Position numbers and translations under genes: made by a program. Positions 28,094-61,305 of a stretch of DNA of 64,000 bases are shown here, in pieces. Numbering within the stretch: position 1 is the stretch's first letter; every line of letters begins with the position of its first letter. This DNA comes from Mobula hypostoma (Eukaryota), in contig NC_086097.1 in the NCBI RefSeq assembly GCF_963921235.1, positions 42,038,001-42,102,000 of the forward strand, read 5' to 3'. The notes below the pieces were generated by a model. It saw only the letters and a program-made list of their open reading frames with translations, was not told where the DNA came from and did no database searches.

Positions 28094-29959
28094 TTATTGT
28101 TGATTCAAGTAACTGCTACAACAAGGAAGGCTGTAACCCTAGAGTCAGCAGCAGCTCTTTAGGAGTGCAATCTTATTAGACCCATGCTCTATCTCTTTCT
28201 CAGCTAGGCATTATTTTCTTCCAAGAGTTTTGGCCCAATTCCCTCTTGTAAACCACAACTGAATACTTCCAGCATCTTTTTAGGCAGTGAATTCCAAATC
28301 ATGGCACAATACTGATTTCCTTCGTGCTATTCCTGATTGTTATGCCAGTCCTCTTAAATCAATATACTCTGGCTCTAGATCCCTTTTATCAACAAAATCA
28401 GTTTCACTTTGATGATTTTGGATGCTTCTATCAAGTCTCTCTTTAGCCAGTTTTACACTGAGGAGAACAACTAGATCATTCAGCAAGCTGGAGCCCTTCA
28501 TCTCAATCCCTTCTGCATCTTTTCTGAAGCCCAAGTTCCATGAAACCATCACTGGGTTCCAGCAAACTAGCAACAGAGGAGCTGAGGGCAGTGTGGACAG
28601 GGTCAACGAACTTAACCTGTTCTTTAACAGATTTGACATTGTGGCCCCTGCCCATACCCCACATGAGTCATCTGTTGTTGGCCCCCAACAAACACATATT
28701 CCACTCTCCCTTCCCACCCAACCTCACAGTCCCCCGCCCTGCTCTCATGACTACACCCCCCCCCCACATGAAACCACCACACTGGGCTTCACAGCTCTAC
28801 AGGTGAGAGGACAGTTGAAACGTCTCCACCCAAGCAAGGCTGCAGGACCGGATGGTGTCAGCACCAGGGTGCTCAAAGCCTGTGCCCCTCAGCTATGTGG
28901 AGTGCTTCACCATATCTTCAACCTGAGCCTGAGTCTCCAGATGGTTACTGTGCTGTGGAAGACGTCCTGCCTTGTCCCTGTGCCGAAGATGCCGCGCCCC
29001 AGCGGCCTCAATGACTACAGACCGGTGGCATTGACCTCCCACATCATGAAGACCCTGGAGAGATTTGTTCTGGAGCTGCTCCGGCCTATGGTTAGGCCAC
29101 AATTAGATCCCCTCCAGTTCGCCTACCAGCCCCGACTAGGAGTTGAGGCTGCCATCGTCTACCTGCTGAACCGTGTCTACGCCCAGCTGGACAAGCCAGC
29201 GAACACTGTGAGGGTCATGTTTTTTGACTTCTCCAGTGCGTTCAACACCATTTGCCCTGCTCTGCTGGGGGAGAAGCTGACAGCGATGCAGGTGGATGCT
29301 TCCCTGGTATCATGGATTCTTGATTACCTGACTGGCAGACCACAGTACGTGTGCTTGCAACACTGTGTGTCCGACAGAGTGAGCAGCAGCACTGGGGCTC
29401 CACAGGGGACTGTCTTGCCTCCCTTTCTCTTCACCATCTACACCTCGGACTTCAACTACTGCACAGAGTCTTGTCATCTTCAGAAGTTTTCTGATGACTC
29501 TGCCATAGTTAGATGCATCAGCAAGGGAGATGAGGCTGAGTACAGGGCTATGGTGGGAAACTTTGTCACATGGTGTGAGCAGAATTATCTGCAGCTTAAT
29601 GTGAAAAAGACTAAGGAGCTGGTGGTAGACCTGAGGAGAGCTAAGGCACCGGTGACCCCTGTTTCCATCCAGGGGGTCAGTGTGGACATGGTGGAGGATT
29701 ACAAATACCTGGGGATACGAATTGACAATAAACTGGACTGGTCAAAGAACACTGAGGCTGTCTACAAGAAGGGTCAGAGCCGCCTCTATTTCCTGAGGAG
29801 ACTGAGGTCCTTTAACATCTGTCAGACGATGCTGACGATGTTCTACGAGTCTGTGGTGGCCAGTGCTATCATGTTTGCTGTTGTGTGCTGGGGCAACAGG
29901 CTGAGGGTAGCAGACACCAACAGAGGGTAGCAGACACCAACAGTCAACAAACTCATTCG

Positions 29960-34900: not shown

Positions 34901-36730
34901 TGTAATTATTAAAACTGTGTTTTAGTAATACATATCTGTTTAGAAAAACAAACAATACAATCACTGACCGTTGCACAATCAACAACAATAGATTTGAAAT
35001 GTCCCCAAAATCTCCATTAATTTCTCTTTAGATCTCTAGGTTGACATGATGTTACTTATAAATTTAAAAAAAAACAAGCTTTCACTCAGCCATTTTGGGA
35101 ACTCTAGGCATTGACATTTTCTCCAGCTTTTACTGCCCAACCGATGTTTACAGAGTAAAGGAAGGAATAAAAACAGTTTGAAACCTGGATCGTTGCTTTT
35201 CATTATTGCTTCCTATAACTGGATTTTTGCCAGTTTTTTTCCTGTCAAAACTAAATGCCCACTGGACTGATAAGCTTTGCTGTATGAACATCAAAAAGGC
35301 CATCTTCCTTGCCGTCGAGGATGTGTATACTGGTGCACCGTAATAAATACCTGAAGTCTGCTGACAGACAGTATCATTTACCGGTTATATGATTTCTGTG
35401 CAGATTACTTGATTTTGTAAAATGAAATTACTTAGACACTCTTGTCTAAACAGCTCTTTTTGTGTGCTGGTGTACAGAGTTTTATCAAGGTTATGACTGG
35501 GTACTTTGTACTTCGGTAATAAATTTAGGGATTTTCAACATGACAAATGAATGAACTTCAAAAGTAATGCTGGTCTTAACTAGATGTCTTAACATTTCTT
35601 GAGTTGCTGCCTTGAGAGTTTGACATACTCCATCTGAGCACCTTCTTTAATTTTGCATTGTCTGTAATGGATCGAGTAAAATGACCTTGACTGTCGTCAG
35701 GTTCCTCGTGCATTCATTTCCTCCATGATCTCCCCTTTCTCTAACAGCAGGAGATTAAGACCTTTGTCCTTGTGAGTGGTGATTGGAGGAAAGTATAGGG
35801 GGCATTGGAGGTAGTGGTGGTGGGTGTGTAGAATACACTGCCAGGAGTAGTGGTTGAGGCAGATACATTAGGGGCATTTAGATAGGTACACGGATGATAG
35901 AAAAATGGAGAGCTATATAGGAGGGAAGGATTAGATTGATCTTTGAGTAAGTTTAAAGTTCGGCTCAACATCGTGGAATGAATGTCCTATATTCTATGTT
36001 CAATGTTCTGTGTTCTAATGATAGAATATTTCATCAATCCTTTCAGGAGTGCTTTCTTTCAGCAGGTCAAAACAAAAAGTTCCTGCTAGCTAATTTGGCC
36101 CTCAAACCATAATGTGGGGCCCTTTGTCTGTAGTCTTCATTTATTAAAAAAAACAACAGCAGAGATAGGGTAGCAGGTAACTAGTTACCCTTCCTATCAC
36201 ACACTTGACATAATTCCCATTTCCCAAGGCACATATCCTAACCAGATCTGTTGCCACTACAGAATATGAAGTAAATCACTGCAGAATGCACTGCTGGGCA
36301 AAGTGCTTACAACTACTTTACTTGGAATGTGCATCAGGCAATTGATGGTATCAAGAATTCTACTGGTTCACACTAGTGGAAAGCAGGTAGCATAATTCTG
36401 TACACAGAATAAAATGCATGCAGGTCACAAAAACGAGGAATATGTAAGATCCAGTAATTCTAAAGGAGTTCTACTGGTCTCATGAGCTAGACTGATAAAG
36501 TTTCCCCTGGGGCTGCTACTATTTAGGTAACATTACTTCAAACAGTAGAAAGAGAAATACTCAGTAGGGTGAAGCTTTCACGTTGTGTGTTAAATCTAAA
36601 AGATTTAAAAGGCATAGTACTGAAGTTCAGAGTTTACAGAACTCTAAGCATTTGGTAAATCATTATCAGGACTGGTTAACACTAGGATAAATTTATTAAC
36701 GAAACCATCATAATGGTTGAACAACTTTAC

Positions 36731-37180
36731 GTCTAAACGTCGACTGTACCTTTTCCTATAGATGCTGCCTGGCCTGCTGCGTTCACCAGCAACTTTGATG
36801 TGTGTTGCTTGAATTTCCAGCATCTGCAGAATTCCTGTTGTTTGCGTTTTAAAATTCACTACTGCGAAGCCTCTTCCGGTGATGCCTACACCGAAGAAGA
36901 TTAGATCCTCTCTTCGACTGGAGTTCAGTGAAACCATCTCTCACTGCTCCCCATCTGTAAATTCTTTGGCTCTTCAACTTCTTGGCCATATTTTGACTCA
37001 GACTCGCTATCACAGACTCGCTATCTTTTTGGATCTTTCCCTCCCCCTCCCACTTTCAAATCTCTTACTCTTCCTTCAGTTAGTCCTGACGAAGGGTCTC
37101 GGCCTGAAACGTCGACTGTACCTCTTCCTAGAGATGCTGCCTGGCCTGCTGCGTTCACCAGCAACTTTGATGTGTGTTGC
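36731..37180 (+). mobile_element. Mini-PLE: partial pLTR, ORF start, deletion, second pLTR in direct orientation; 14-bp TSD
   Basis: TSD TTGAACAACTTTAC at 36717-36730 and 37181-37194. Direct repeat 36735-36813 vs 37107-37185. Confidence 0.9.
37081..37118 (+). ncRNA. Minimal type I hammerhead ribozyme motif (intact core)
   Basis: Helix I AGUC/GACU; CUGACGA at 37086-37092; short helix II; GAAA at 37106-37109; palindromic ACGU in place of helix III; GUC cleavage triplet ending at 37113. Confidence 0.85.
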
Positions 37181-37867
37181 TTGAACAACTTTACAGCCAT
37201 TTTGGAAGCCAACCTGAATTCAGAGTGCTGAAAGTCACCCACTCGTATAGGGGAAGACAACTGATTCAGAAAACAACCCATTTTCCAGCCATAGGTATTG
37301 TGGACCTGGCCCTCTATATTTGATGAGTAACTCATTCCACACCAAAGCAGTAAGGATATGGCTGCAGCCCCTTCTGCCAAAATTGATGTTAAATAAAATT
37401 TAAAAATGTTGGTTACAAATAATAAAATCACAATTTTTTGTAGTTCATTATAGCTACAATTTTTTTGTATGGCTCAACTTTGAATAATTTTGTCAAAAGA
37501 AAGTATAAGTATGTGAGAAGATGCAACCCCACCTTTATTAATGGAAAAGAATGGATTTTTGCTACTTATGCAGAATATCAATAAAGCAATTCAGATTCGT
37601 GGAGAAATTTACACTGACAAAGTTGTAATTGCTTTCTGTATTTGCATTTGTTTTATCTCTAGCTGTGAAATGACTGCTGAATACAATATTTAAGCTACTA
37701 GCTCGGGGGAACAATTATGCAGGCACTTTCAGTTGAGCAAAGGGAGTTAATTGGATATGGAAAGTTACTATTGCATTGCTTCCTTTTCCTCCATCCACTT
37801 AACTAAAAGAGAAGTACAATAATTCAGCTAATAGTTAAAATAAAAAAGCACTTGCATTTACCTGGAG

Positions 37868-41955: not shown

Positions 41956-42878
41956 TTAGCTTAAGTCCCTTAAGTAAAACCACAGAATCGTCTATAGTGA
42001 ATGAAGGCTTTCCTTCAGGTTAATAATGTAATAGCATTGGAGGAAACAAGGGGGAACACCTAGAATTTGAACTGCAATGGCTAGGAAGTTTAAAAAAAAT
42101 GCTTTTCTTTGAGAAAGGTCCAGAAGCAAATCAAATGATACTCCACTCCCATTCTATTTACATAACTTTACTCAGGCCTTACTGGTAAAATTAACATTTA
42201 TTCTCCATCTGTAATCCCGCCTGTACTGCACTCGATCAGCTTAGGCGTCTGTGCTCAGCCCTTGAAGTTACATAATGTGCATGGTTGATAAATTGCACTA
42301 ATGCCAAAATCAGAGTGCTACCAACTACACCACAGCTGACCAGGAGAAACATGGGTTTTATAAGCAAATTTCAAACGGCAATGTGCACCAATCACATCAA
42401 TGCTTCTGGTAAAAATGAACTTGCAATTATTTATAGATGCAAGACATTCTGCAAATGACAGCAAGTGCCGGGTCCTTTCATGCAACTGGGAGGATTATCC
42501 CTGGAAATAATGGTTCCTGTTATTTATACTGGGAGAAATCAAACTTGGATCATATAGCTCTGTATAAAAAATCAGCATTACACTATTCAATTTCTAGGTA
42601 AACATGTTTTAACTAGTAGTTGAAGCATAAATAGATGTTATATATAAATTTATAATCAGCATTGTATCTGTACTGGTGAGAATATCATTGGTCAGGACAC
42701 TAAGAGAATTCTTCTATCATAATTTTATCATGGAGATTTGGAGCAGAGCAGGTTCTCATTTGCGAAGTAATCTTACTAAGAGTCCTCAAGGCTCTATGTG
42801 AGGCCGGAGTCCTCCAGAAACCAAAATGCTGCCACTGATTTAACTAAACAAAACCAAAGTAGATTATCTTCAATAATT

Positions 42879-43082
42879 TAAATGCAAACAACAGGAATTC
42901 TGCAGATGCTGGAAATTCAAGCAACACACATCAAAGTTGCTGGTGAACGCAGCAGGCCAGGCAGCATCTGTAGGAAGAGGTGCAGTCGACGAAGGGTCTC
43001 GGCCTGAAACGTCGACTGCACCTCTTCCTACAGATGCTGCCTGACCTGCTGCGTTCACCAGCAGCTTTGATGTGTGTTGTTG
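42879..43082. mobile_element. 204-bp fold-back PLE insertion with a 14-bp TSD
   Basis: 70-bp inverted arms at 42922-42991 and 43010-43079 (2 mismatches), 18-nt loop. TSD TATCTTCAATAATT at 42865-42878 and 43083-43096. Confidence 0.92.
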
Positions 43083-43206
43083 TATCTTCAATAATTGTAC
43101 ATATTATTCACAGAACTCACACTGTCATTACATATGCATTTGACGCTTGCCTTAATTCAACATATGATTGTATACTTGCCCCACAAAGAGTTTCAGACCT
43201 GAAACA

Positions 43207-51345: not shown

Positions 51346-52228
51346 TTGCAGAAATATAACATATTTCACAACATGTGCCAGTGATTAAATCTGATTCTGA
51401 TTCTGAAATGCTTCAAAATGTAATTCCTCAAATTATGTCTTTGAGTCTGTGCTTTTAAAATTTATCTTCCATGTGTGAGACATTTAATTGTTCTGGTCTT
51501 GGTTTCGGAATCATTTATGCTTCAATTAAAACGTTTACCCTAATTTTCATCTCATTATCTTTCATCTTACATTAATTTAAGATAGGAAAATGATGCAGGT
51601 GTGCTGATAAAACTCAGCACTAAAATCTTCCAGGAGTGACTCTGCCAAGTTTAGACCAACCCGTATCCCTCTGACTTAAGTCAAAATATTGTTGGAATAT
51701 TTACTGCAAAGTGAAATGACCATGTGAACCTGTTCATTATAATCCATATACTTTACACACATGTTGGCAAAGGCATCAAGATAAATGAATCAAAGGCAGG
51801 TAAATGACACGAGGCTATAGACCAATCATGATCTAATCAAGTTTTGAAGCAGCCTAAAGCAGTTTTACTAATACCATGTTTATCATTCTTCAAAACTGTT
51901 CTAAAATTACTTTTATCAAAAATAACAATTTTTTCTTTCTTTTGTTAAACTGTTCTCCATTAGTACCCCTGTAGCATCTTCACATATCCTTTCTGCATGT
52001 CTTTTTGCATTATTTCAACAGTTTGCAAAGGTTTCTTTCACAATTATTCATTGCTTCAAAATACACTAAATACCAAGATTTTATTCTGCTGTTCCTCAGA
52101 GAAAAATAGCAATTTTAACAATTCAAACTATAACTGTATTTCAATTTGAAGCCTATTGCCCATCCTCACTGGACTTATCTCATGTAGATAGTTTCATTTC
52201 CATTACAACCTAGGTGCATGAATACTCA

Positions 52229-53629
52229 AACAACACACATAAAAATTGCCGGTGAACGCAGCAGGCCAGGTAGCATCTCTAGGAAGAGGCACAGTTGACG
52301 TTTCAGGCCGAGACCCTTCGTCAGGATTAACTGAAAGAAGAGATAGTAAGAAATTTGAAAGTGGGAGGGGGAGGGGAGATCCAAAATGATAGGAGAAGAC
52401 AGGAGGGGGAAGGGATGGAGCTAAGAGCTGGAAAGTTGATTGGCAAAAGGGATATGAGAGGATCATGGGACGGGAGGCCTAGGGGGAAAGAAAGGGGGAG
52501 GGGGGAAGCCCAGAGGATGGGCAAGGAGTATAGTGAGAGGGACAGAAGGAGAAAAAGGAGAGAGAGAAAAAAAATTAATAATAAATAAATAAACAAATAA
52601 ATAAATAACAGATGGGGTACGAAGGGGAGGTGGGGCCTTAACGGAAGTTAGAGAAGTCAATGTTCATCCCATCAGGTTGGAGGCTACCCAGACAGAATAC
52701 AAGGTGTTGTTCCTCCAACCTGAGTGTGGCTTCATCTTTACAGCAGAGGAGGCCGTGGATAGACATGTCAGAGTGGGAATGGGATGTGGAATTAAAATGA
52801 GTGACCACTGGGAGATCCTGCTTTCTCTGGCGGACAGAGCGTAGGTGTTCAGTGAAATGGTCTCCCAGTCTGCGTCTGGTCTCGCCAATATATAGAAGGA
52901 CTCGTTGGGAGCACCGGACGCAGTACATCACCCCAGCCGACTCACAGGTAAAGTGTCGCCTCACCTGGAAGGACTGTCTGGGGCCCTGAACGGTGGTGAG
53001 GGAGGAAGTGTAAGGGCATTTGTAGCACTTGTTTTGCTTACAAGGATAAGTGCCAGGAGGGAGATCGGTGGGGAGGGATGGGGGATACGAATGGACAAGG
53101 GAGTCACGTAGGGAGCGATCCCTGTGGAAAGCAGAGAGAGGTGGGGAGGGAAAGATGTGCTTGGTGGTGGGATCCCGTTAGAGGTGGCAGAAGTTACGGA
53201 GAATAATATGCTGGATCTGGAGGCTGGTGGGGTGGTAGGTGAAGACAAGGAGAACCCTATTCCTAGTGGGGTGGCGGGAGGATGGGGTGAGAGCGGATGT
53301 GTGTGAAATGGGAGAGATGCACCTCCCGCCACCCCACTAGGAATAGGGTCCCATGATCCTCTCATATCCCTTTTGCCAATCAACTTTCCAGCTCTTAGCT
53401 CCGTCCCTTCCCCCTCCTGTCTTCTCCTATCATTTCGGATCTCCCCCTCTCCCTCCCCCTCCCACTTTCAAATCACTTACTATCTCTTCTTTCAGTTAGT
53501 CCTGATGTAAGGTCTCGGCCTGAAACGTCGACTGTACCTCTTCCTATAGATGCTGCCTGGCCTGCTGCATTCACCAGCAATTTTTATGTGTGTTGCTTGA
53601 AATTCCAGCATCTGCAGATTTCCTCGTGT
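52229..53629 (-). mobile_element. Penelope-like element (GIY-YIG + pLTR) with an inverted pLTR at 53345-53629; 15-bp TSD
   Basis: ORF 52638..52964: GVMYC...LYIGETRRRLGDHFTEH. TSD GTGCATGAATACTCA at 52214-52228 and 53630-53644. Long inverted terminal repeats. Confidence 0.95.
52292..52333 (-). ncRNA. Minimal hammerhead motif (core intact, helix I imperfect)
   Basis: Minus strand CTGACGA-AGGGTCTCGGCCT-GAAA-CGTC-AACTG. Confidence 0.7.
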
Positions 53630-55137
53630 GTGCATGAATACTCATTGCCTAGTTGATTGTCCTTTCCTGAAACACAAAACTGACTTGTTACAAAAAGGAT
53701 AAAAAGAACTTTGAAGTTTGTCTTTTATTTCCTTTCTGCTAGGGAAATGAACTTACCCTTTGTTGAGCCAAGATGCAAACATCACTTATGTTTCACACTC
53801 TATTTTGCAACTAGCACATGGAATATACCTGCTGAGGGTCGAATAGGAACTCAAGTCTACATTGATTTTCCTAACTGGAATTTGTAAGGAATTGTGAATT
53901 GAATTCAAACCTATTAAGCACTATTTCAGAAATTCTGGATTACACAAATATAATTTTCAGAAATTAGTTGCAAAAAATGAGGTTTTAACAACTCATGCCT
54001 TCAGCTTTCTTGTTACTAATGACTCTGACAGAATTTACAATTCTATTATTAAGTTCTTGATTTATGAACAACACAGTGGAAGATAGAATGCAAACGATGA
54101 AGGGCGAGGTGGGAGAGTTCATACAAAAACTAAAAAAAATCTTTAAAATGAAACAAACCTAATGATTTTTTGTTGGGCATTAATAATCATTAGTGATCAA
54201 ACCAAGCAGCAGAGTGGGATGTTCACAAATGTATTAATGTAACTATCTGTGCTTCATGTATAAAGCTACAAGCAAATTAAATTTTATTAGTTGTCACGTA
54301 AACACAGCTATAGTGGCATAGGATTATGTTTTCCATGTTGAAGGTTCTACAATTAAATGTTGATTAACTGCAGATCATTAAAGTAGCAGTTATGATTAAT
54401 CATTCTGAAAAACTTGTAATAACTGGTTTTGAAATAAAAACACATGGACCTAAATAAATCCATGATCATAATAACCAATATACAAACATGTTGTGGCTGA
54501 ATTATGAACAGTAATGCTGGTTACATAAGCATGGGAATGTACTGTATAAGCAAAGGTAATGAGCCTTGAATAAAACACAACATACTGGATTTTCTCAGCA
54601 CGTCAGGCAGTATCTTTGACAAAAGAAAGAGAATTAATATTTCAGATTTAAAGTTGCAGTTATTTTCATTGTAGTAAATGAAAATGTAAATTCTTTGAGC
54701 CCATGTTATGATCATTATGAGTATTCATCAACAATTTAAGGGGAAGTAGTTATTTCTATTCATCAACGATTTAAGGGGAAGTACACTGTTTTTGCTTTGC
54801 ACTTTTGCCTAATGAATCTTCAGGCTTGGGACATGGATTATATTCTTAATTCCTCCATGTCCTCACACTTTCCCATCCTCCAATCATTAATTTGATAGGC
54901 CTAATGCCATGCACTTGACTCCGATTTGTGCACCCCCACCCCCTTCAACCAGTATTGATGTTAAGTTCTTGTTCTTGCATTTTGTTTGCTTTAAAGCACC
55001 TCTTATAACCGTTTTGTTGACTTGACCTTGAACATCCATTTTGTTATGATTTGTTGCCCACTTGAATCATAAAGTCAACCTTTGACATTCTAGAATCGCA
55101 AGCATGCACCAGTAGGCTCAAGGATAGCTTTAATCCT

Positions 55138-59394: not shown

Positions 59395-59962
59395 TACCTG
59401 GTAAGGCTCTGAAAACTTGTGCCAACCAACTGGCAGCAGTATTCAAAGACATTTTCAACCTCTCACTGCTATGTGCTTCAAAAAGTCGCCAATTATACCA
59501 CTGCCTATGAAGAATAATGTGGGCTGCCTTAATGAATATCGCCCGATAGCACTCACATCTACAGGGGTGTGTGCTTAGCCTACTGCTCTACTCTCTCTAC
59601 ACCCATGACTGTGTGGCTAGGTATAGCTCAAATACCATCTATAAATATGCTGACGATACAACCATTGTTGGTAGAAACTCAGATGGAGAGTGTACGGGAG
59701 TGAGATATGCCAACTAGTGGAGTGGTGTCAGAGCAACAACCTTGCACTTAATGTCAGTAAGACAAAAGAGCTGATTGTGGACTTCAGGAAGGGTAAGACG
59801 AAGGAACACACACCAATCCTCATAGAGGGATCAGAAGTGGAGAGAGTGAGCAGTTTCAGGTTCCTGGGTGTCAAGATCCCTGAGGATCTAACCTGGTCCC
59901 AACATATCGATGTAGTTATAAAGAAGGCGAGACAGCGGCTGTACTTCATTAGGAATTTGAAG
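59395..59962 (+). mobile_element. Internally deleted Rex1/Babar fragment (outer element A)
   Basis: KYADDTTIVG; ORF 59690..60007 NVSKTKELIVDFRK...KKARQRLYFIR, which runs into the tail of element B. Confidence 0.85.
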
Positions 59963-61305
59963 AATCAGAATCAGAATCAGGGTTATTGTCACCGGCATGT
60001 GATATGAAATTTGTTAACTCAGCAGCAGCAGTTCAAGGCAATACATAATCTAGCAGAGAAAAATAATAATAAATAAAATAAAAAATTAATAATAATAAGT
60101 AAACAAGTAAATCAATTACATATATTGAATAGATTTTTTAAAAACCTGCAAAAACAGAAATACTGTATATTAAAAAAAAGAGTGAGGTAGTGTCCAAAGA
60201 TTCAATGTCCGTTTAGGAATCAGATGGCAGAGGGGAAGAAGCTGTTACTGAATCGCTGAGGGTGAGCCTTCAGTCTTCTGTAACTCCTACCTGATGGTAA
60301 CCGTGAGAAAAGGGCATGCCCTGGGTGCTGGAGGTCCTTAATAATGGACGCTGCCTTTCTGAGACACCGCTCCCTAAAGTTGTCCTGGGTACATTGTAGG
60401 CTAATACGCAAGATAGAGCTGACTAGATTTACAACCTTCTACAGCTTCTTTCATTCCTGTGTAATAGCCCCTCCCTACCAGACAGTGATGCAGCCTGTCA
60501 GAATGCTCTGCACGGTACAAATGTAGAAGTTTTTGAGTGTATTTTTTCACATTCCAAATCTCTTCAAACTCCTAGTAAAGTATAGCCACTGTCTTGCCTT
60601 CTTTATAACTACATCGATATGTTGGGACCAGGTTAGATCCTCAGAGATCTTGACACCCAAGAACTTGAAGCTGCTCACTCTCTCCACTTCTGATCCCTCT
60701 ATGAGGATTGGTATGTGTTCCTTCATCTTACCCTTCCTGAAGTCCACAATCAGCTCTTTCATCTTACTGACGTCGAGTGCCAGGTTGTTGCTGCAGCACC
60801 ACTCCACTAGTTGGCATATCTCACTCCTGTACACCCTCTCGTCACCGCCTGAGATTCTACCAACAATGGTTGTATCATCAGCAAATTTATAGATGGTATT
60901 TGAGCTATGCCTATCCACACAGTCATGCGTATACAGAGAATAGAGCAGTGGGCTAAGCACACAACACTGAGGTGCACCAGTGTTGATCGTCAGTGAGGAG
61001 GCTATGTTATCACCAACCCACACAGATTGTGGTCTTCTGGCAATAAGTTCAGGATCCAATTGCAGAGGGAGGTACAGAGGCTCAGGTTCTGCAACTTCTC
61101 AATCAGGATTGGGGGAATGATGGTATTAAATGCTGAGCTATAGTCGATGAACAGCATCCTGACATAGGTGTATGTGTTGTCCAGGTGGTCTAAAGCCCTG
61201 TGGAGAGCCATTAAGATTGCATCTGCCATTGACCTATTGTGGCGAGAGGAAAATTGCAATGGGTCCAGGTCCTTGCTGAGGCATGAGTTCAGTCTAATCA
61301 TGACC
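59961..61305 (-). mobile_element. Rex1/Babar LINE 3' half (element B) with (GATTCT)n tail
   Basis: [34 protein letters not shown]; (AGAATC)3 at 59961-59978. Confidence 0.93.

Follow-up and report, generated by a model that had tools for sequence, protein, structure and literature searches.

A hairpin insertion of a Penelope-like element in Mobula hypostoma, and where copies of its family end relative to a predicted hammerhead cut

The stretch of ray DNA analysed here (64,000 nucleotides, hereafter the window) contains a short fold-back insert that turns close to the predicted cleavage site of a hammerhead ribozyme. This raises the question of whether the turn is a footprint of ribozyme cleavage during the transposition of a Penelope-like element (PLE). 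Whether the PLE hammerhead cuts the transposition template, and where the inverted ends of these elements come from, are left open in the accessible parts of PMC8557442, PMC3846280 and PMC11167929. The ray genome offers a natural test with large numbers, and its outcome is negative for a cleavage footprint.

Anatomy of the insert and its element family

Element positions are counted from the predicted cut, +1 being the G after GTC (window 43014) and -1 the C before it. The features of the insert and of related insertions in the window are as follows.

42865..42878, plus strand: left copy of the TSD, 14 bp, TATCTTCAATAATT
42879..42991, minus strand: left arm, antisense 5'-truncated pLTR copy, from the long RT start to position -4
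42988..42991, no strand: GACG microhomology common to both arms (core G5-G8 in the right arm, complement CGTC in the left arm)
42988..43082, plus strand: right arm, sense 5'-truncated pLTR copy, from position -26 to the short RT start
42992..43009, plus strand: loop of 18 nt, with the extra A, helix II and GAAA of the minimal hammerhead
43013..43014, plus strand: predicted hammerhead cut GUC^G, through which the right arm reads (motif as defined in the accessible part of PMC4209133)
43083..43096, plus strand: right copy of the TSD, 14 bp, TATCTTCAATAATT
36717..37194, plus strand: related partial-tandem insertion with its 5' end at -7, flanked by a 14-bp duplication (by eye)
37080-37125, plus strand: intact minimal hammerhead (predicted) inside the partial-tandem insertion, preceded by a branch-point, pyrimidine-tract and CAG motif
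52215..53644, no strand: related long head-to-head pair flanked by a 14-bp duplication (by eye), its arms having a short and a long start

An earlier note on this DNA had described a 204-bp insert with a 14-bp TSD and near-perfect 70-bp arms, and this description is confirmed: the TSD is present at both ends, and the arms (42922-42991 against 43010-43079) match at 68 of 70 positions, with two mismatches, around the 18-nt loop. The loop consists of helix II plus GAAA and the joint lies at the GACG microhomology, also as described. The left arm matches the copy at 36738-36852 at 96% and carries a 37-nt tail (about 42879-42921) that the right arm lacks. The note had let the left arm run up to the cleavage position, 42987; the mirror of the cut does lie there, but complementarity continues to 42991, four nucleotides (GACG) past the cut. 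As the right arm starts at G5, within the hammerhead core, and lacks C3-U4, the insert encodes no complete hammerhead. The RNA fold of the insert has an energy of -156 kcal/mol (z -21, 200 shuffles), and the hairpin could form dsRNA, as had been proposed. It is a real structure of a known kind, and as a single insert it is ordinary.

The family is large, with 135,596 exact matches of a 16-base anchor in the 3.48-Gb assembly. RT motifs and a GIY-YIG-like domain in the longer copies mark it, by sequence, as an EN+ Penelope-like element, and the Cys linker of these copies assigns it, on that criterion, to the Neptune type. The RT motifs QTKGVAMG and RYIDD occur in two copies (L056 and L057), contiguous with the pLTR; a Pfam scan of these two gave no match, and RVT_1 matched a copy in the window with E 0.004, under the curated cut-off. 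GIY-YIG (PF01541) was found in three of the four endonuclease-end fragments scanned, with E values from 1.4e-4 to 3.5e-3, just under the cut-off, and the linker CKRNKCYTC in several copies. The minus-strand arm of the pair at 52215..53644 carries the endonuclease end of the ORF. In the part of PMC8557442 available, a Zn-finger-like Cys linker between RT and EN is the mark of Neptune, shared with Nematis, and the optional tail of EN+ elements measures 30-40 nt. The pLTR arrangement (partial tandem or inverted), the tail and the TSD are those of EN+ Penelope-like elements.

Intact copies, such as that at 37080-37125, contain CUGACGA, an extra A, a 4-bp helix II, GAAA, a palindromic ACGU, GUC and a helix I of 4-5 bp, that is, the parts of a minimal type I hammerhead predicted to cleave itself. 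An Rfam scan of the window at E<=1 returned no hammerhead, its sub-threshold microRNA, tRNA and lncRNA matches all lying elsewhere, and the variants in 48 cores include no compensatory changes in helix II. In the favoured fold of the RNA, AGUC and GACG pair with CGUCGACU. The branch-point, pyrimidine-tract and CAG motif ends at -35, adjoining helix I, and the pyrimidine tract and CAG are kept at the same place in older subfamilies. As far as the accessible text of PMC4209133 goes, the intron of D. virilis ends at the 5' end of helix I, and its intron-end motif abuts helix I as that of the ray family does. Splicing at the CAG acceptor motif may also occur in the ray; among the joints listed for sequencing runs guessed to be RNA none was spliced to this acceptor.

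The window holds other repeats. A 472-aa open frame at 1441-2856 on the minus strand has protease-like and RT-like motifs, and we take it to be an LTR retrotransposon pol. A 504-aa open frame at 28416-29927 on the plus strand, with RVT_1 (E 1e-22) followed by PF09004 (E 2e-14), is a non-LTR retrotransposon fragment. A long inverted pair of a different repeat lies at 59562-59963 and 60561-60969, its arms 88-91% complementary. Finally, at 53237-53365 a hairpin at the inner joint of the long head-to-head pair at 52215..53644 gives sub-threshold Rfam microRNA matches, which are probably due to chance.

Fold-backs as a class and how they may form

With the insert as query, all 40 scored matches were full-length fold-backs, and the 30 that were fetched have different flanks and each its own TSD. 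A gap pattern (61-121 bases between anchors) counts 8,729 short fold-backs genome-wide. The exact joint of the focal insert occurs 124 times, across all subfamily backgrounds; its share of 1.4% is only approximate because the joint pattern carried no anchor. We analysed the joints of 49 of the first 50 fold-backs listed, omitting one near-identical neighbour of L098; these and the other fold-back samples lie within the first 16 Mb of a single contig. The focal joint is found in none of the 49. Seventeen joints have inserted bases, five are blunt and 27 share at least one base, several of the latter sitting at palindromes and two, with overlaps of 13-14 bases, being ambiguous in alignment. Short templated repeats or skips can be read by eye at six joints (L065, L078, L107, L061, L067 and L098) and suggest that reverse transcription stopped near -32 and was re-primed within the hammerhead through matches of 2-5 bases.

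The starts of the arms are more regular than their joints. All 45 fold-backs with flanks combine one long and one short start, which lie 37 nt apart; 30 of the 45 had been picked by a query of that very shape, and the 15 chosen without reference to starts are likewise all long-plus-short. The TSD measures 13-15 bp in 37 of the 45 and ranges from 8 to 17 bp. A MITE, by definition, has fixed terminal inverted repeats and a fixed short TSD and is copied as a unit. Such an origin, or copying from a master hairpin, would suit the 124 loci with an identical joint; yet that joint is present in all subfamily backgrounds, the other joints are heterogeneous, the TSD varies and the two arms correspond to unequal parts of the end of a retroelement, so that we regard it as very improbable. 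The resemblance to a MITE noted earlier is thus one of appearance: the insert is a retro-insertion of the Penelope-like pLTR of the minimal-hammerhead family. Palindromes can also come from assembly, but the 14-bp TSD, the two mismatches between the arms, their unequal ends and the thousands of independent loci with their own TSDs make an artefact exceedingly improbable here.

The two arms of a fold-back tend to belong to the same subfamily. They agree at +18 in 62 of 66 cases (23.9 expected by random pairing), at +7 in 59/64 (33.2 expected), at +28 in 63/68 (46.2 expected), at +6 in 52/59 and at +56 in 68/73. Discordant arms were seen in six of 60 fold-backs at the +18/+28 pair, only L074 being discordant at both sites, and are compatible with later mutation or with two source RNAs, between which they do not discriminate. 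The variants TGCACC and CTACAG, which the earlier note had found in both arms and not in the copy at 37114, are real; they are, however, ordinary subfamily alleles, present also in L033, L035 and L047, which are not short fold-backs. Since arms agree far above random in general, variants common to both arms point to a common source and not to a special event.

These end products, on which the model rests, are probably explained by two cDNAs that were primed one on each strand of a staggered cut, had uncut RNA as template and were then joined head to head. The focal insert would have been left, dead on arrival, by an EN+ Penelope-like element, whose endonuclease would make a staggered cut of 13-15 nt. 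Each 3' end would prime a cDNA on element RNA, with the long start used for one cDNA and the short start for the other. Both cDNAs would grow toward the 5' end of the RNA across one and the same stretch, pass the hammerhead site, which is uncut, and end early; they would then be joined head to head, either where a short microhomology lets them anneal or with the insertion of a few bases. The hammerhead would offer many short matches for such joining, and its self-complementarity accounts for the GACG/CGTC joint of the focal insert. According to the portion of PMC11167929 at hand, a lizard PLE protein, modelled as a dimer, nicks and extends both strands in vitro from two internal RT starts whose spacing equals the genomic tail; uncut RNA is inserted, without need for hammerhead cleavage, and both start sites are used alike on both strands. 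The lizard mechanism fits all the features seen in the ray, whose enzyme may likewise be dimeric. Equal use of the two starts does not by itself predict the strict long-plus-short pairing.

Alternatively, a single cDNA might fold at a short palindrome and copy itself back. Self-priming of this kind accounts for matching arms and for palindromic joints (two of 49 at GTCGAC, others at ACGT or CG), and palindromes at inverted junctions are also described in the available part of PMC3846280. It cannot have made the focal insert from one cDNA, however, because the further-reaching, short-start arm lacks the 37-nt tail of the other arm. The same holds for seven of 15 fold-backs sampled without bias (L061-L075, by eye), in which the long arm reaches further in six, the short arm in seven and two are tied. 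We therefore consider self-priming unlikely. A version with a separate antisense RNA template, such as was invoked in what is accessible of PMC3846280, may remain compatible with the data.

Where copies end relative to the predicted cut

The earlier note had taken the focal joint to mean that reverse transcription reached a 5' end produced by the ribozyme at GUC^, after which the template was switched; the turn would then mark the cut. With all four GACG bases assigned to the right arm, the left arm can indeed be read as ending at 42987. A blunt join must then have landed on the sole position that gives a four-base match, and the right arm itself passes the cut. If GACG was used as microhomology, the left arm's template included -1 to -4 and hence was uncut; if that template was cut, the four-base match is a coincidence. 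As a microhomology joint it calls for an uncut template, and the turn is not supported as a footprint of cleavage.

To see where arms end in general, we sampled arms regardless of their ends: 100 were the listed matches, within the first 7.8 Mb of a single contig, of a 36-base pattern that lies downstream of the hammerhead, and two partner arms were added from a 30-base check. Short fetches censor this sample near -75 to -90, one end, in L133, is an internal deletion and was retained, and nine loci are also in the fold-back set. Only two of the 102 arms end at -4..+2, against 15 in 51 flanking positions (p=0.55), and 95 extend past position -4. By contrast, 28 end at -28..-39 (p=3e-11 against +30..-27), five of them at -32. 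The per-base end hazard is 0.0023 around the cut and 0.0275 at this pile-up, which lies at the 5' edge of helix I beside the CAG acceptor motif (37075-37086 in the intact copy). A further 13 ends form a weaker cluster at -40..-60, over the pyrimidine tract and the branch motif. Among 98 fold-back arms, 12 end at -4..+2 and 34 at -5..-23, that is, 2.0 against 1.8 per nt; 34 of the 49 fold-back loci have an arm ending at -24..-39, in a set that the gap window biases. One blunt joint at +1 does exist, in L069.

Genome-wide, ends were counted as arm matches up to a position, followed by A plus two further mismatches. The counts are 80 at +5, 150 at +1, 65 at -8, 373 at -13, 261 at -23 and 1,013 at -32. 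Ends at +1 are therefore about twice those at +5 and -8 (p<1e-5), as cleavage would suggest, but those at -13, -23 and -32, reachable only on uncut RNA, outnumber them. Part of the excess at +1 comes from local sequence: 33 of the 100 +1 matches listed share GTC with position -18 (by eye), and with these cases removed +1 falls to about 100, 1.25 times +5 and 1.5 times -8. A similar class makes up 58 of the 100 -13 matches listed (by eye), leaving about 157. The 6.8-fold excess of -32 over +1 is an upper figure, because the re-priming class inflates the -32 count; that class places A at -33 in three of 49 fold-backs. With a rough capture correction, ends at +1 come near 1% of arms, cut or not, and by this rough estimate cut RNA would contribute at most about 1%. 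Non-inverted copies that end at -32/-33 and have flanks show a TSD in 3/3 cases, and these are therefore true insertion ends. A small tandem was seen at G000:C55:76471788-76471963, where three matches 62 bases apart each end at +1, the unit boundary falling at the predicted cut.

The peak of junctions predicted at the GUC site did not appear. Junctions are instead scattered through the element according to local microhomologies and palindromes, which is the outcome named beforehand as speaking against cleavage. Ends at the cut are no commoner than at control positions within the hammerhead and much scarcer than at -32. From the accessible parts of two further sources, no RNA reads ended at the site and cleavage was not required (PMC11167929), and a single minimal motif showed no cleavage (PMC4209133). 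As a general rule the cleavage footprint is largely refuted, and as the origin of the focal joint we judge it quite improbable, slightly more so than self-priming.

What causes the pile-up at -32 is a separate matter. The chances are evenly balanced that reverse transcription stops or is released there after crossing the hairpin, or collides with factors on the acceptor. A transcription start at this point is a less likely, tentative explanation; the sequence at the hot spot resembles an initiator. Trimming of a cDNA hairpin by repair is unlikely, and so, to the same degree, is any other cause; the DNA fold of the cDNA has only -6.3 kcal/mol over 70 nt, which weakens the idea of a hairpin trimmed at its base. 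In the sequencing runs, -32 is the strongest upstream loose end among those listed (307 contigs in X1, 225 in X5 and 36 in X15), and none lies at +1 among those listed. We do not count this as support, because it holds for the listed ends only and the loose-end consensus at -32 is close to an older subfamily, whose sequence diverges upstream of this position.

None of the runs that contain the sequence is labelled as RNA; six were guessed to be RNA, and contigs of four runs were compared with the single-arm copy L047:1141-1580, not with the hairpin. A>G differences occur at 14 and 13 places in two RNA-guessed runs against 4 and 6 in DNA runs, reaching 7.8% and 9.3% at +17 (against 1.0%) and 6.8% and 10.7% at +19 (against 0.5%), whereas T>C shows no increase (10 and 10 against 12 and 12). 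Transcribed hairpins should show both changes. The A>G excess suggests editing of sense transcripts; it is family-wide, comes from contigs of other individuals and does not bear on the focal locus. In X15 and X18 the excess, on the sense strand only, reaches far upstream of the short fold-backs (23% and 11% against 0.1% at 1184), and CpG-decay alleles are rarer there than in DNA runs (1.4% and 1.2% against 7.4% at 1470).

A broader and rather doubtful reading is that the uncut hammerhead acts as a structural signal, not as a cutter, and that two RNAs feed a dimeric RT, one subunit per start. The RNAs might be paired through the palindromic ACGU that the minimal hammerhead needs to dimerise. 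Of the cDNAs arriving at the 5' edge of helix I, about a third would stop there, because the RNA begins at that point, refolds behind the RT or bears splicing factors on the acceptor. If this were true, the more than 135,000 arms would chart how PLE reverse transcription proceeds in vivo.

Comparison with known systems

In L1 twin priming, both target strands prime cDNA, the inversion is joined by microhomology and the TSD is kept, and the two pieces derive from separate parts of a single RNA; in the ray, by contrast, the pieces overlap and begin at two fixed start sites. The layout of the focal insert, an inverted 5'-truncated copy with a one-sided tail and a TSD, is already described as typical of PLEs. 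Published EN+ Penelope-like insertions, in the accessible parts of PMC8557442, PMC3846280 and PMC2377424, have the same head-to-head inverted copy, one-sided 30-40 nt tail and TSD, with palindromes or microhomology at the joint as here. The difference is that both copies here are about 100 nt, so that the whole insert is a hairpin, and the size of the class, in the thousands, permits junction statistics beyond those in these sources as far as available. In literature searches that covered few subscription papers, we found no report of a truncation hot spot at the PLE hammerhead or of the strict pairing.

As for the ribozyme, the metazoan PLE minimal type I hammerheads in the available text of PMC4209133 have the same CUGANGA core, extra base before helix II, palindromic ACGU in place of helix III and helix I of 4-5 bp, but a helix II of 7-8 bp where the ray has 4 bp, and the fold-back itself lacks C3-U4. 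The non-LTR retrozyme consists of tandem units, each with a complete type I hammerhead (bioRxiv 10.64898/2026.07.22.740005, accessible part); the focal insert is inverted and single, and its core is incomplete. The R2 HDV-like ribozyme is, in what is available of PMC3774820, a known case in which cleavage shapes genomic 5' junctions, whereas in the ray there is no such peak at the cut and ends accumulate about 32 nt upstream of it.

Finally, the closest functional comparison is with Poseidon PAc of the green anole, studied in vitro (PMC11167929, accessible part). There too, two starts define the tail and both strands are nicked and extended, and hammerhead cleavage is dispensable, the RNA substrate being uncut, with which the negative result in the ray agrees. 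The ray family differs in its Neptune-type Cys linker and in pairing the starts strictly one each, a strand difference that PAc does not show in vitro. This strict long-plus-short pairing, together with the pile-up of ends at the 5' edge of the hammerhead, is a modest addition to what is described for these elements.
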